From positions 22,859 through 86,858 of the forward strand of contig JAYTOE010000067.1 of the NCBI GenBank assembly GCA_043747935.1: a stretch of DNA of 64,000 nt, read 5' to 3'. Below, one piece after another: positions 25,172 to 38,031 of the stretch. The DNA is from Akkermansiaceae bacterium (GTDB lineage Bacteria > Verrucomicrobiota > Verrucomicrobiia > Verrucomicrobiales > Akkermansiaceae). Below the pieces are notes generated by a model, which saw only the letters and a list, made by a program, of their open reading frames with translations, was not told where the DNA came from and did not search any database. The translations under genes and the position numbers were made by a program. The stretch's first letter is position 1. Every line of letters begins with the position of its first letter.

Positions 25172-26014
25172 ATGAAAATGAAACGCCTCATCTTGTCCGG
25201 TTTGCTTGTGGGTTCTGCGGCTCTTGCGGTCTCGTCCTGCGCCTACGATCCTTATTACTCCTCGTCCTCCTATTCCGGTGGATACGGAAGCGGATATGGG
25301 AGTTCGAGCTTCTCCACTTCCGTTTTCGTAAGCACTGGCAATCCTCGCTGGGGCTATGATCCCAACGCGGGCTGTTATTACGACTACACGCGCAGGTCGT
25401 ATTATGATCCGTATCTATGCGGCTACTACCCCGTCGGTTATCGTCCTCGCTACGTTTATGGTGCGCCCCATCCCCACGGCTGGTCGCGTGGCAGCGGCTA
25501 CTGCCCGCCGCCGACAAGGATCAGCAGCCACACGATCGTAAATTGTGACAACCGCGCCGAGAGCTACCGTTCGTTGGGCAGGGAGTGGTCCGACAATGTC
25601 AGAGTCAGTGCGCCCAATGGCCATGGGTCTCATAGTTACGGTGACAGCAACCAGAATGGTTGGAGCGGAGAGCGGATTCGTCCTAGTGAGGTAAACCCGC
25701 AATCACCGAGCATCCCGTATTTTAACAATGATGGAAATGGTCGGGGTTCATCCGGTAGGGGCGATGCAGGTGGCGGGGGCTTTGATCGCGGCAATAGGCC
25801 GCAGCCAACCATGCCGAATCCGAGAGCCTCGCGCAATGACTCGCCGCCGCCCGCGCCAACGTTCGAAGCACCTCCACGGATCGAGTCGCCAGCCGCGCCT
25901 CCACGGATCGAGATGCCTGCCGCACCTCCACGGATCGAGATGCCTGCCCCGCGCCGGGAACCTCAGGCACCGGGCGAGAATTCAGAAGGTATCAGATCGC
26001 TGGGCGAAGGCTGA
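25172..26014 (+). CDS. Hypothetical Tyr/Gly/Pro-rich lipoprotein
   Basis: Lipobox VSSC; Tyr-rich N-terminal region; low-complexity Pro-rich tail. Confidence 0.75.
   Translation: MKMKRLILSGLLVGSAALAVSSCAYDPYYSSSSYSGGYGSGYGSSSFSTSVFVSTGNPRWGYDPNAGCYYDYTRRSYYDPYLCGYYPVGYRPRYVYGAPHPHGWSRGSGYCPPPTRISSHTIVNCDNRAESYRSLGREWSDNVRVSAPNGHGSHSYGDSNQNGWSGERIRPSEVNPQSPSIPYFNNDGNGRGSSGRGDAGGGGFDRGNRPQPTMPNPRASRNDSPPPAPTFEAPPRIESPAAPPRIEMPAAPPRIEMPAPRREPQAPGENSEGIRSLGEG
25868..25948 (+). repeat. 3 x 27-bp in-frame tandem repeat (APPRIE[S/M]PA)
   Basis: GCACCTCCACGGATCGAGATGCCTGCC-type units, read directly. Confidence 0.9.
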
Positions 26015-27139: not shown

Positions 27140-27367
27140 CTAAGGCTGCTTCATCAGGAAAAAAATGCCCGTGAGGACGATGGCGAGAAGTGAGAAGCCG
27201 ATGGCGCACCATTTCATGAGACGGTAGCGATTCCTGCGCCGCAGGAGTTCAATATCGCGCCTTGATTTGGAATCGATGGCGGTGGGGGTCTGGGTTGCCC
27301 TATGGTGATGGCGTGAGTAGGTCTTTTTCGGACTTCCCCCTGGTTGGGTTGGGGATGTGGATTGCAT
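27140..27367 (-). CDS. Small hypothetical protein with C-terminal TM helix
   Basis: Basic N-terminal region and a hydrophobic C-terminal helix (WCAIGFSLLAIVLTGIFFL); stop abuts the ctaA region. Confidence 0.5.
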   Translation of the reverse strand: MQSTSPTQPGGSPKKTYSRHHHRATQTPTAIDSKSRRDIELLRRRNRYRLMKWCAIGFSLLAIVLTGIFFLMKQP

Positions 27368-27489
27368 TTTTTCTGTTTCCCTATCGCTGCCGGAAATCAT
27401 GGATCGCGGCAGAAGACTTTTCCATACAAAAATCACGCACCGGTTGCGAGGAAATTTATGGGATCAATCGGGCACCGCGTCCGTACACG

Positions 27490-27532
27490 AAAAAGCAGGC
27501 CTGGGCTTGTTGAAAGCCTCAGACCTGCTTTT
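27490..27532 (-). terminator. Intrinsic terminator after the 54-aa lipoprotein gene (possibly bidirectional)
   Basis: AAAAAGCAGGCCTGGGCT...AGCCTCAGACCTGCTTTT hairpin with A/T tracts on both sides. Confidence 0.75.
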
Positions 27533-27553
27533 GAAAGATTCTAACGGCGCGCC

Positions 27554-27718
27554 TTACTTGGAGTATTCCACCTGCACGGGGGCGGGGGTAGTCGGGATCT
27601 CCTTGAAATTGGGCATGGGACGGAGAGGCGGTGCGGCCGAATCGCTGGTGCAGCAGCCGCAGGATGAGGATAGGACAGCAATGACGCTGACGGAGATGGC
27701 AAGGAAGAAACGAATCAT
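27554..27718 (-). CDS. 54-aa Cys-rich lipoprotein (not in the ORF track)
   Basis: MIRFFLAISVSVIAVLSSS-CGCCTSDSAAPPLRPMPNFKEIPTTPAPVQVEYSK; signal peptide, lipobox-like SSSC, A/C-rich leader, own terminator. Confidence 0.8.
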   Translation of the reverse strand: MIRFFLAISVSVIAVLSSSCGCCTSDSAAPPLRPMPNFKEIPTTPAPVQVEYSK

Positions 27719-27778
27719 GGTGGGCTTGGTTTAGCTTAGGTGTTTTATTTGGAAAGAGTTTTTTGATCACGGGGATCA

Positions 27779-27820
27779 GAAAAAAGCCCCGCCCGATTCC
27801 GGAGAAGCGGGCGGGGCGGG
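27779..27820 (-). terminator. Intrinsic terminator after the 35-aa lipoprotein gene
   Basis: Minus strand GCCCCGCCCG...CGGGCGGGGC followed by a T tract. Confidence 0.85.
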
Positions 27821-27828
27821 AGCCGGAC

Positions 27829-27936
27829 TTACTTAGCTGGAGCTTGGTAAGCAGGAGCTGCAGGAGCGCTCGGGCAGCACGAAGCTGCGAAGAAGGCTGC
27901 GACAGTGGCAACGATGGCAAGTTTGATCATGTTCAT
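27829..27936 (-). CDS. 35-aa lipoprotein (not in the ORF track)
   Basis: MNMIKLAIVATVAAFFAAS-CCPSAPAAPAYQAPAK; clear lipobox, GCT/GCA/TTC/TAC-rich codons, A/C-rich leader, own promoter and terminator. Confidence 0.85.
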   Translation of the reverse strand: MNMIKLAIVATVAAFFAASCCPSAPAAPAYQAPAK

Positions 27937-27999
27937 ATCAGTTGTGTTGTTTGTTGGTTGCTGAAATCACCTGCCCGTCTTGGGCTGATGATGTGGGCG

Positions 28000-34516: not shown

Positions 34517-35155
34517 ATGTTCTTAAAATCATTCATCCTACTACTCGCCGGTGCCACCGCTCTTCTGCTTTCAAGCTGCGCCATCAAGCCCGAACCCACT
34601 CTCTCCAAGTCGGACGAGAAATATGTGAACCCTTACGAGCCCGGCAGCTACGATCATTTCAAGGCGGAAAAGGATTACCCGAAGACCCACAATGTCTGGA
34701 AAAATATCCAACTGCTTCCGGAGACGAATTCCTCCAATGCATGGGTGAAGATCAGCCTGAAAGATCAGCGCGGCTTTCTCATGAACGGCGAAGAGGTGAT
34801 CATGGACTACCCGATCTGTTCCGGGATCAAGAGCCGACCCACTCCTCCGGGCGACTACAAGGTGCTGGAAAAAATCGTGGATAAGAGCTCGAACACCTAC
34901 GGAAAAATCTACGACGCAGAAGGCAGCATGATCAACGGTGACGCCGATGCCACCTCGGACACCATTCCCGAGGGCGGCAAGTTTGTCGGCGCACCGATGC
35001 GATACTGGATGCGCCTCACATGGGATGGGGTCGGCCATCACATCGGCCCCATCCGCCGTTATCCCGCCTCCCATGCCTGCATCCGCGGCCCAAGCGGCAC
35101 GATGCCTACCGTCTATTCGAAGATGGCCGTCGGCTCCCGCGTGCTCGTGGAGTGA
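34517..35155 (+). CDS. L,D-transpeptidase family (YkuD) lipoprotein
   Basis: Lipobox LSSC; PTPPG, MRYWMRL, catalytic HH...SHACIR. Confidence 0.9.
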   Translation: MFLKSFILLLAGATALLLSSCAIKPEPTLSKSDEKYVNPYEPGSYDHFKAEKDYPKTHNVWKNIQLLPETNSSNAWVKISLKDQRGFLMNGEEVIMDYPICSGIKSRPTPPGDYKVLEKIVDKSSNTYGKIYDAEGSMINGDADATSDTIPEGGKFVGAPMRYWMRLTWDGVGHHIGPIRRYPASHACIRGPSGTMPTVYSKMAVGSRVLVE

Positions 35156-35757: not shown

Positions 35758-38031
35758 TTGCGTGTGGATTCCGAGGAACCCGAGACCAAACCCCGCCGCC
35801 GACTCCGGTTCCTTGCTCGCTTGTTCGTCATCGGGGTTCTCGCAGCGGCCCTTGTCTGGTTCGTCCTGCCTTTCGCGTTCCAACTCCCGCCGGGCTTGGC
35901 CGTACGCCCGGTCGCCTCGCCGGTTCTGCTCGACCGCCACGGCGAGCCGATCCGTCACCTTACCTCCGAGGACTTCACTCGCGCCGCTCCGATCAGGCTT
36001 TCCGAAATTCCGCCCCGCTTGCTCGATTGCACCCTCGCCGCCGAGGACAAGCGCTTCTTCTCCCACCACGGCATCGACATTTTCGCTACCTTCCGCTCCG
36101 CCACCGATTTTCTCCGGCACCGCCGCGTGGTTTCCGGCGCATCGACCATCACCCAGCAGCTCGCGAAAATCTCCGCCCCGCCCGCGCCGCGCAAACTCGC
36201 CTCGAAATTCCGCGAAGCGATGATCGCCCGTCGCCTTGAAATGACGTGGGAGAAAGACCGCATTCTGGAGGCATATTTCGCGAGGCTCGATTACGGGAAT
36301 CTCCGCATCAGTCCCACGGAGGCGGCGCGGTTCTATTTCCAGAAACCCCTGGCCGATCTCTCGCTCGGCGAGGCAGCCCTGCTCGCCGGGCTACCGCAGG
36401 CACCCTCGCGGCTCAATCCCATCCGCCACCCGGAGCGCGCGAAGAATCGCCGGCTTATGGTTCTCGATCGTCTTGCTCAGACCGGGAAATACCCGCAAGC
36501 AGCCATCGCCCTCGCCCGCGAGGAACCGCTGCGCCTCCGGCCGCTCACGGAGACGCAGAGCGCCCCCTGGCTCAACCGCTCGCCGGGCTTCACCATCCAC
36601 GCCCGCTCCACCCTCGACCTTTCCCTTCAGGAAGACATCGAGCGCATCGTCCGCGAGGAGACTGCGAAGCTGAAGGAATCGAACCTCCGCCACGCCGCCG
36701 TGGTTGTGATTGATAACGCCAGCGGCGACATCCTCGCCATGGTATCCTCGGCCGATTGGGACGATCCGCGCGGCGGCCAGCTCCACGGCGCGATGACCCC
36801 GCGCTCGCCCGGCTCCACGTTGAAGCCGTTCACCTACCTCCTCTCCTTCCGCCACCTCGGTCATCTGCCGTGCACCGTCATCGCGGACATCCCCACGCCG
36901 CTCCGCACCGCGCAGGGCTTGCAGCTTCCGGAAAACTACGACCGCCGTTACCGCGGGCCGGTCACCATCCGTCACGCCCTCGCCTGCTCGCTCAACGTCC
37001 CCGCCCTCCGCGAGCTCGACGCCCTCGGCGGCCCGCAAAAACTCCAGTCGTTTCTCCAAATCCTCGGTATCTCCACCCTCGGCGGCAGTGCCACCGAATA
37101 CGGCCTCGGCCTCACCCTCGGCAACGCCCCCGTCCGCCTGCTGGAGCTCACCAACGCCTACGCAGCCATCGCCCGGCTCGGCATGTTCCTTCCCACCCGG
37201 CTCTTCATGGATCACGAAATCCCCGCCGGGAAAAAGCTCATCGACGCCACCCACTGCTGGCTCATCGCCGACATCCTTTCCGACAAAGCCGCCCGAGCGC
37301 CCTCCTTTTCCACCGGCGGTGCGCTCGATCTGCCTTTCACCTGCGCCGTGAAAACCGGCACCTCCTCCGACTTTCGGGACAACTGGTGCGTCGGTTTTAC
37401 CCCGGAGTTCACGGTCGGCGTCTGGGCAGGGAACTTCGAGAACCAGCCGATGAAAAACATTTCCGGAGTCTCCGGCGCGGGCCCTATTTTCCACCGCGCC
37501 CTCGTCCGCGCCCACCGCGATACGCCGCCCACCTGGTTCGCGCGACCGGATGGTTGTGAATGGGTGGAAGCCGACACCCGCACCGGTAAGCGACTCACCC
37601 CCGGGGATCATCCGACGTTCTCCGTAAAGGAATGGCTCCCGCCCGGCACGGGAATCCCCGGCGCGTCCCCAACCGATTACGACGAATCAGGCCGCGCCAA
37701 GCTCCCGCCCGTTTACGCCGACTGGTATGCCTCGGCGCAAAACCTGCGCCGCCACGAACTTTTCCTCGATCCCACCGCGCAAAACCTCACGCCCCTTGAG
37801 ATCCTCCGCCCCCGCCACAACACCACCATCCTCCTCGACCCCGAACTCCCCGGCAGCAACTCCTCGCTGAAACTCCTCACCAACCTCCCCGAGTTCACCA
37901 CCTGGGCCTGCGGAACCCTCGTGATCAAGGGCGATACCGCCAAGCTCATCGCCGGCACCCACACCCTCACCGCCACGGACACCCGCGATGGCAAGGAACA
38001 CCACATCACCATCACCGTGCAGCCCTTATGA
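35758..38031 (+). CDS. pbpC: Penicillin-binding protein 1C
   Basis: EDKRFFSHHGID, GASTITQQLAK, SPGSTLKPF (SxxK), SLN, KTGTS. Confidence 0.9.
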   Translation: MRVDSEEPETKPRRRLRFLARLFVIGVLAAALVWFVLPFAFQLPPGLAVRPVASPVLLDRHGEPIRHLTSEDFTRAAPIRLSEIPPRLLDCTLAAEDKRFFSHHGIDIFATFRSATDFLRHRRVVSGASTITQQLAKISAPPAPRKLASKFREAMIARRLEMTWEKDRILEAYFARLDYGNLRISPTEAARFYFQKPLADLSLGEAALLAGLPQAPSRLNPIRHPERAKNRRLMVLDRLAQTGKYPQAAIALAREEPLRLRPLTETQSAPWLNRSPGFTIHARSTLDLSLQEDIERIVREETAKLKESNLRHAAVVVIDNASGDILAMVSSADWDDPRGGQLHGAMTPRSPGSTLKPFTYLLSFRHLGHLPCTVIADIPTPLRTAQGLQLPENYDRRYRGPVTIRHALACSLNVPALRELDALGGPQKLQSFLQILGISTLGGSATEYGLGLTLGNAPVRLLELTNAYAAIARLGMFLPTRLFMDHEIPAGKKLIDATHCWLIADILSDKAARAPSFSTGGALDLPFTCAVKTGTSSDFRDNWCVGFTPEFTVGVWAGNFENQPMKNISGVSGAGPIFHRALVRAHRDTPPTWFARPDGCEWVEADTRTGKRLTPGDHPTFSVKEWLPPGTGIPGASPTDYDESGRAKLPPVYADWYASAQNLRRHELFLDPTAQNLTPLEILRPRHNTTILLDPELPGSNSSLKLLTNLPEFTTWACGTLVIKGDTAKLIAGTHTLTATDTRDGKEHHITITVQPL

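Follow-up and report, generated by a model that had tools for sequence, protein, structure and literature searches.

Two tiny lipoprotein genes lie in tandem on the minus strand of a 64,000-nucleotide (nt) stretch of an Akkermansiaceae genome (contig JAYTOE010000067.1, positions 22,859–86,858; here called the window), and our analysis concerns the second of them, gene 2, together with its neighbour, gene 1. Gene 2 (27554–27718, ATG start, TAA stop included), delimited from the open reading frame (ORF) listing and the sequence, encodes a prolipoprotein of 54 amino acids (aa), MIRFFLAISVSVIAVLSSS|CGCCTSDSAAPPLRPMPNFKEIPTTPAPVQVEYSK, where the bar separates the signal peptide from a 35-residue mature peptide. 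It starts 110 nt downstream of gene 1 (27829–27936; assigned from RNA contigs and orthologues), whose 35-aa product is MNMIKLAIVATVAAFFAAS|CCPSAPAAPAYQAPAK, divided in the same way. Both products conform to the lipobox rule with the Cys at position 20 (PROSITE PS51257-type), and “SSC” lipoboxes are also found elsewhere in the window, in two larger lipoproteins of which the YkuD enzyme encoded at 34517 is one. The elements that an earlier note on this DNA had picked out, i.e. a 54-aa ORF downstream of the first, SSS|CGCC, a Pro-rich linker and a VEYSK end, are all present in the sequence.

The gene 2 product can be divided into five segments. The signal peptide (residues 1–19; 27662–27718) consists of M-I-R, a hydrophobic core and the lipobox L-S-S-S before Cys20, an assignment based on the lipobox rule and on an AlphaFold helix confined to residues 2–19. 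It is followed by C-G-C-C (residues 20–23; 27650–27661), i.e. the predicted lipidated Cys and then a vicinal Cys-Cys, and by a linear motif, P-P-L-R-P-M-P-N-F-K-E-I (residues 30–41; 27596–27631), both of which are defined by conservation among orthologues. A variable Pro/Thr/Ala/Val spacer (residues 42–53; 27560–27595), recognized by high column entropy and by indels in multiples of three, leads to a C-terminal Lys encoded by AAG (27557–27559). The mature peptide contains 7 Pro in 35 residues (20%), and the C-terminal tryptic peptide is EIPTTPAPVQVEYSK. An end in Lys is uncommon in this DNA: merely 39 of the 2150 ORF starts of ≤80 aa in the window have one.

Two pattern scans of species-representative genomes yielded 122 loci (42 in the first set, 80 in the second), all from Verrucomicrobiales labelled Akkermansiaceae, Luteolibacter, Verrucomicrobiaceae and similar, and including four cultured strains (L. 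algae KCTC 22040, L. pohnpeiensis KCTC 22041, L. marinus NBU1238 and Luteolibacter sp. AS25). The gene 2 ORF is found in 121 of the 122 loci, which is far beyond chance, and the 109 unique sequences that they contribute show that over 100 species genomes of Verrucomicrobiales have kept the gene (Akkermansiaceae in the GTDB sense, with Luteolibacter and its relatives). Third codon positions dominate the pairwise differences in gene 2 (13371, 7953 and 22407 at positions 1, 2 and 3) as in gene 1 (4572, 1845 and 9945), and indels comprise whole codons. A word-indexed search found nine close homologues of gene 2 (71–91% identity), one alone of which is named, as “hypothetical protein”; a gene 2 profile matched 66 clusters at E ≤ 1e-3 among 1.84 billion representative proteins. 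Almost all entries for the family in the databases lack a name. One of the profile matches, the 672-aa P0065, was rejected as a false positive with an unrelated repetitive sequence. Pfam and NCBIfam (E up to 10) gave no match to either small protein or to 106 gene 2 orthologues, a PDB profile search with the family returned nothing meaningful, and a literature search found nothing on it. Lake metagenome-assembled genomes (MAGs) carrying the locus (L004, L005, L006, L022, L028 and others) are titled “Akkermansia muciniphila” or “Prosthecobacter debontii”; these titles look like mislabels, since the helicase and ctaA genes are 87–98% identical to those of the window.

Transcription in nature is evident from RNA contigs, with those of three freshwater metatranscriptomes spanning 27571–27764 (gene 2) and those of four spanning 27822–27971 (gene 1). 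The two small genes are the only parts of a 1.2-kb stretch so covered, the neighbouring helicase and ctaA genes being absent; contig depth is no measure of expression, and the contigs thus demonstrate transcription and not its level. The contigs belong to related strains and break off with the similarity, so that no transcription start was read from their ends; a sigma-70 promoter scan found no site. The terminator that the earlier note had ascribed to gene 2 was borne out: a long hairpin with a U-run at 27490–27532 (minus strand) has a calculated folding energy (ΔG) of −29.5 kcal/mol (z −3.85), which none of 200 shuffled sequences equalled. A second, GC-rich hairpin with a U-run lies between the genes (27780–27817, minus strand; ΔG −29.3 kcal/mol, z −2.68). 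An Rfam covariance scan of the region gave sub-threshold hits only (17–21 bits versus gathering scores of 42–82), all on these terminator hairpins. Taken together, gene 2 is a real, coding, transcribed and lipoprotein-like gene.

The 5′ leader of gene 2 (27719–27764, minus strand) is A/C-rich, depleted in G and without a Shine-Dalgarno (SD) site, and the RNA contigs extend into it as far as 27763/27764. Across the relatives, G makes up 7% of the 25-nt leaders of gene 2 and 5% of those of gene 1, versus 23% for the large ORFs of the window, and an SD-like core is seen in none of 106 gene 2 and none of 84 gene 1 relatives, versus 11 of 44 large window ORFs. From its composition we regard the G-poor leader as a conserved signature of what is probably an unstructured, SD-independent and efficiently translated leader, in a host that rarely uses SD sites. 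Such nearly G-free leaders (27719–27764 and 27937–27975 on the minus strand, and in more than 80 relatives) may mark highly translated mRNAs in this SD-poor lineage.

Alignment of 106 orthologues revealed that the strongest conserved features of the family are two elements on which the earlier note had not remarked. The first is the cysteine cluster: C20, C22, C23 and T24 are invariant, and the family pattern is the lipidated Cys, 0–4 residues and an invariant C-C-T, usually followed by [SG]-[DE], with the variants CGCC, CCC, CxCC, CxxCC, CGGCC and, rarely, CGC. The second is the near-invariant P-x-L-R-P-L-P-x-F-x-E-I (P30 91%, L32 98%, R33 96%, P34 92%, L/M35 92%, P36 100%, F38 100%, E40 96%, I41 92%). 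In the signal peptide, R3 and S19 are each conserved in 97%. The family spacer is rich in Pro, Glu, Gln and Ala, variable in sequence and length, and extends for 8–40 residues (median 13) after the PxFxx[I] motif. The mature peptide as a whole comprises 30–41 residues in the orthologues (median 35), compared with 16–20 (median 18) for gene 1 in the relatives, in agreement with the earlier suggestion that gene 2 has the longer spacer.

The tail follows the pattern hydrophobic residue, x, Tyr or other, small or acidic residue, Lys. Conservation of a C-terminal Y-x-K, proposed earlier as the point of resemblance to Braun's lipoprotein (Lpp), holds for the Lys and for about half of the Tyr residues: Lys closes the sequence in 106 of 109 unique orthologues and in 70 of 72 library representatives, whereas 58 of 109 (~55%) have Tyr at −3 and the others Pro, Ser, Arg, His or Ala. 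A freshwater Luteolibacter clade, for example, ends in ...ERTK, ...EPTK or ...EHTK. Positions −1 to −3 before the terminal Lys vary freely (entropy 1.7–2.7 bits). The terminal codon is AAG in 84 cases and AAA in 24, a mixture showing that it is the residue and not the codon that is constrained. In gene 2 this constraint is strong, for the terminal Lys as for the motifs. The non-Lys exceptions are a truncation (locus L035), an end in ...HYST (locus L060) and frameshifted or run-on sequences. In L035 (2772–3132) gene 2 is truncated after ...REIPT, and in L060 (1289–1441) it stops where its close relatives L065 and L067 have their final Lys; the L035/L010/L024 clade and L060 may represent either natural loss-of-function variants or MAG assembly errors.

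About 93 of the 109 unique loci (~85%) have a tiny lipoprotein ORF 42–134 nt (median 102) ahead of gene 2; of these ORFs 87 end in Lys, and the two most divergent located members (L123 and L124) likewise have a Lys-ended mini-lipoprotein just upstream. The gene 1 tail follows Y-[QV]-[AT]-P-[AST]-K, with the Tyr in 75 of 80. Conservation of the gene pair is therefore extensive and also incomplete, with no gene 1 adjoining gene 2 in about 13 lineages and a gene 1-like ORF without terminal Lys in about 6 (...PPVV, ...PPAM, ...VVAG, ...TPSM, ...APR), including one clade (L035, L010 and L024) in which it ends in ...PPVV or ...PPAM. Gene 2 retains its Lys in nearly all lineages in which gene 1 is lost or Lys-less (L035 and L060 being the exceptions), making gene 2 the more constant Lys-bearing member. 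With respect to the earlier description of gene 2 as a “paralogue or partner” of gene 1, the partnership is supported by the ~93 loci and by the two most divergent members, whereas paralogy is not demonstrable and is not claimed here: the hhalign match (probability 90%) covers 18 columns, comprising the signal peptide and S-C-C only. A hairpin with a T-run was detected between the genes in 33 of 86 relatives and after gene 2 in 87 of 107. Because the intergenic hairpin is seldom detected, the pair probably often forms one transcription unit in many relatives; in the window clade, the hairpin within the pair is probably an internal attenuator-like element.

AlphaFold2, run with the 106-sequence alignment, predicts a helix in signal peptide residues 2–19 only and coil throughout the mature peptide (mean predicted local distance difference test score 77.6), with a block mean of 82 for residues 31–40 in the absence of secondary structure there. 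A peptide without a fold of its own, in which the strongest conservation falls in the first 22 mature residues and not in the tail, and in which moderate AlphaFold confidence coincides with a lack of secondary structure as expected for a docking peptide, might be a non-covalent accessory lipoprotein. In such a case the Cys-Cys and PxLRPLPxFxEI elements would dock into an outer-membrane machine or a periplasmic protein, and the terminal Lys with its carboxylate would belong to a binding epitope rather than serve as a cross-link site. The precedent is LptM (YifL) of Enterobacteria, a small, disordered, Pro-rich outer-membrane lipoprotein that binds LptD/E and in which the conserved residues after the lipidated Cys form a docking peptide. 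The gene 2 product resembles LptM in being small, disordered and Pro-rich and in combining an N-proximal conserved motif with a disordered tail; in contrast, LptM has neither a conserved C-terminal Lys nor vicinal cysteines, and there is no sequence match. Although this is the main rival to the tether interpretation developed below, we consider it rather unlikely. It accounts for the motif but leaves unexplained why 97% of orthologues end in Lys despite variation in spacer length and in the residues before the Lys, and why the neighbouring mini-lipoprotein also ends in Lys; furthermore, the Pfam search at E up to 10 matched no small-lipoprotein family, and no conserved neighbouring gene hints at a partner.

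The residues that follow the cysteine cluster suggest another possibility, i.e. that the peptide is surface-exposed or released, with a role in envelope charge, signalling or adhesion. Acidic residues usually follow the lipidated Cys region (T-S-D or T-G-E), and the T-[SG]-[DE] sequence would then serve as an export signal like that of Bacteroidota lipoproteins; the host is SD-poor, as in Bacteroidota, and the peptide is tiny and unfolded. However, we know of no lipoprotein export system of this kind in Verrucomicrobia, the neighbourhood shows no sign of secretion, and such a role accounts for neither the terminal Lys nor the PxLRPLPxF motif, so that we regard it as improbable.

Downstream of gene 2, and on its strand, the window has first a 98-aa ORF and then the heme A synthase gene ctaA (PF02628); upstream there is a DEAD-box helicase gene. 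The presence of ctaA downstream on the same strand, here and in 27 of the 42 first-set loci (within 3 kb), together with the invariance of Cys22/Cys23 and a second Cys in gene 1, raises the possibility of a thiol- or metal-binding lipopeptide, functionally reminiscent of small Cys-rich copper chaperones, in which the vicinal Cys-Cys would bind Cu(I) or act as a redox relay at the membrane, perhaps for cytochrome oxidase assembly. The ctaA neighbourhood is, however, confined to the CGCC clade. In the second scan (1.5-kb flanks) ctaA was seen at 6 of 80 loci, all six from first-set assemblies, and in this set the gene most often found downstream is leuC, which occupies that place in the CCC clade; a family-wide link to ctaA and cytochrome oxidase was therefore rejected. 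A strong terminator and a variable gap also separate gene 2 from ctaA, and metal binding would leave both the terminal Lys and the Pro-rich motif unexplained. We accordingly consider this alternative highly improbable. No envelope gene is consistently adjacent to the pair at the loci of either scan, and the shift of context between clades (ctaA versus leuC) implies that the pair is an autonomous unit rather than part of a pathway operon.

A candidate for an enzyme acting on the terminal Lys is encoded about 7 kb from the pair (34517–35155, plus strand). This 212-aa lipoprotein (lipobox LLSS|C) has a YkuD L,D-transpeptidase domain (PF03734, E 3e-13) with the motif S-H-A-C-I-R, and its PDB relatives are L,D-transpeptidases of the ErfK/YbiS/YcfS/YnhG type. 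Orthologues occur in at least 25 pair-carrying assemblies, including three of the four cultured Luteolibacter strains, and also in Haloferula, Oceaniferula and Roseibacillus. In E. coli, LdtA/B/C link the Lys of Lpp to meso-diaminopimelate. On the basis of its domain and distribution, the 34517 enzyme is a candidate attaching enzyme, with a co-occurrence that appears compatible with this role but non-discriminating. The S-H-A-C-I-R sequence has Ala where the usual motif has Gly.

Comparison with Lpp (PF04728) brings out both the attraction of a tether interpretation and its limits. Like Lpp of E. coli, the gene 2 product is small, probably abundant, and has a lipobox and a constrained C-terminal Lys; its gene is a compact one that ends in a strong intrinsic terminator, the genome encodes a YkuD L,D-transpeptidase, and in about half of the family a Tyr stands two residues before the Lys, where Lpp ends in Y-R-K. 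In contrast to the 58-residue trimeric coiled coil of Lpp, however, the mature gene 2 peptide of 35 residues is Pro-rich and predicted to be coil throughout, and it carries the additional invariant Cys-Cys and P-x-L-R-P-L-P-x-F-x-E-I. There is no sequence homology (0 of 106 orthologues match the LPP profile). Only some Gammaproteobacteria have Lpp (10.1101/2021.05.31.446380), whereas gene 2 occurs in Verrucomicrobiales and its attachment to peptidoglycan is proposed only. Having the lipobox and terminal Lys of Lpp and lacking its homology and coiled coil, the gene 2 family is not a member of the Lpp family.

Two further systems provide precedents. Salmonella has two Lys-ended murein lipoproteins, LppA and LppB, one of which carries a Cys, and their Cys-mediated disulfide dimers and mixed trimers tune attachment (PMC12681736; 10.1101/2025.11.13.688167). 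The presence of two small Lys-ended lipoproteins in one organism is common to both cases, and follows the logic of the earlier proposal that tethers of different length, or a disulfide-linked pair, might act together. LppA and LppB are, however, true Lpp paralogues with coiled coils and with the Cys beside the C-terminal Lys, whereas gene 1 and gene 2 have their cysteines beside the lipid anchor and show no detectable paralogy beyond the signal peptide. Nearer in phylogeny, WP_009060351 of Methylacidiphilum fumariolicum SolV is an abundant, very highly expressed lipoprotein in which an N-terminal Cys and a C-terminal Tyr and Lys are conserved; it was detected in the peptidoglycan fraction and proposed by its authors to be an Lpp-like tether (PMC10260701). 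It shares with the gene 2 product its verrucomicrobial origin, N-terminal Cys and C-terminal Lys; it is a protein of 139 aa with a 53-residue conserved C-terminal domain and forms dimers and tetramers (PMC10260701). No 139-aa match was listed in the search of the 1.84 billion representatives with the gene 2 profile, WP_009060351 being compared by length only.

These observations lead us to favour, tentatively and at a little below an even chance, the interpretation that gene 2 encodes a non-homologous, unstructured Lpp-like tether whose terminal Lys is joined to the cell wall by a YkuD L,D-transpeptidase. The grounds are the terminal Lys, near-invariant in gene 2 and usual in gene 1; the lack of a predicted fold in the mature peptide; the lipobox and the conserved positive n-region of the signal peptide; the lpp-like expression hallmarks, i.e. 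a strong terminator, a G-depleted leader without SD site and short RNA contigs; the conservation in the same assemblies of a lipoprotein YkuD enzyme with its catalytic Cys; the persistence of the pair as an autonomous unit across changing contexts; and the Methylacidiphilum and Salmonella precedents. The Lpp-like reading of the earlier note is thus strengthened with respect to the Lys, which is preserved through both AAG and AAA codons, and to the conserved YkuD lipoprotein, and weakened with respect to Y-x-K.

In the mechanism that we propose, the gene 2 product would be a highly expressed outer-membrane mini-lipoprotein. Its signal peptide would be cleaved and Cys20 lipidated, as the lipobox suggests, and the 35-residue mature peptide would remain unfolded and extended, at a length that we estimate as ~100 Å, long enough to reach the wall. 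On the periplasmic side of the outer membrane, the Cys-Cys and P-x-L-R-P-L-P-x-F-x-E-I part would dock on, or oligomerize with, a partner, which may be the 16-residue gene 1 lipopeptide, joined by a disulfide. The variable Pro-rich spacer would then bring the C-terminal Lys to the peptidoglycan, where the YkuD L,D-transpeptidase would bond the Lys ε-amine to meso-diaminopimelate, making the gene 1 and gene 2 pair a non-homologous, unstructured analogue of Braun's lipoprotein. In this scheme we infer the outer-membrane location, the disulfide pairing, the docking and every step of peptidoglycan attachment. A fuller version, in which both Lys-ended lipopeptides (16–18 and 30–41 residues) are held together by vicinal-Cys disulfides near the membrane, positioned by PxLRPLPxFxEI and both cross-linked to meso-diaminopimelate by the lipoprotein L,D-transpeptidase as the covalent outer membrane-peptidoglycan tether of Verrucomicrobiales, seems to us unlikely as a whole.

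Several points weigh against a tether. The family shares neither homology nor a coiled coil with Lpp, and the Tyr of “Y-x-K” is gone in ~45% of orthologues. The most conserved elements, CC-T and P-x-L-R-P-L-P-x-F-x-E-I, are unneeded by a simple tether, which leaves both unexplained, and they suggest a specific protein partner. Since gene 1 may be absent or lose its Lys, as described above, a two-tether arrangement is not obligatory. The transpeptidase gene is unlinked and YkuD enzymes are common, and their co-occurrence with the pair therefore does not discriminate. Finally, the outer-membrane location of the gene 2 product is assumed.

Other genes of the window may be described briefly. A class A penicillin-binding protein gene (35758–38031, plus strand), encoding transglycosylase and transpeptidase domains, lies ~600 nt downstream of the YkuD lipoprotein gene on the same strand. 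The 98-aa ORF between gene 2 and ctaA (27140–27436, minus strand) has a basic, Ser/Thr/Pro-rich N-terminal part and one C-terminal transmembrane helix. In NCBIfam it matches MacP, an accessory phosphoprotein of a cell-wall synthase, weakly and below threshold (E 0.0022; 18 bits versus a cut-off of 45), and tblastn gave matches in three relatives only (L002, L008 and L011). A 280-aa lipoprotein without Pfam match (25172–26014, plus strand; lipobox AVSS|C), convergent to ctaA in many relatives, is rich in Tyr, Gly, Ser and Pro (YDPYY.., YYDPY..) and has a Pro-rich tail in which APPRIE occurs three times.

That a lipoprotein can tether the outer membrane covalently is textbook knowledge. By homology, such tethering is known only in part of the Gammaproteobacteria, and other phyla are thought to use Pal, OmpA or OmpM. 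What is new here is a conserved, transcribed and unannotated family of Lys-ended mini-lipoproteins for which neither Pfam nor NCBIfam has a model, a case showing that gene callers and family databases miss genes this small. Should the proteins turn out not to be tethers, their invariant CC and PxLRPLPxFxEI would still mark an envelope interaction not yet described. If the proteins are tethers, they would represent convergent evolution of Lpp-type tethering in the Planctomycetes-Verrucomicrobia-Chlamydiae superphylum and would show that a tether can do without a fold and needs no more than a lipid, a spacer and a lysine. Were the disulfide-held double lipopeptide to prove correct, it would be the shortest and the only intrinsically disordered covalent tether known, and Lpp-type tethering would have arisen independently outside the Proteobacteria. 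Cultured Luteolibacter species carry the genes, making the tether idea directly testable, and gene 1 and gene 2 together stand as a credible but unproven verrucomicrobial counterpart of the Braun lipoprotein.

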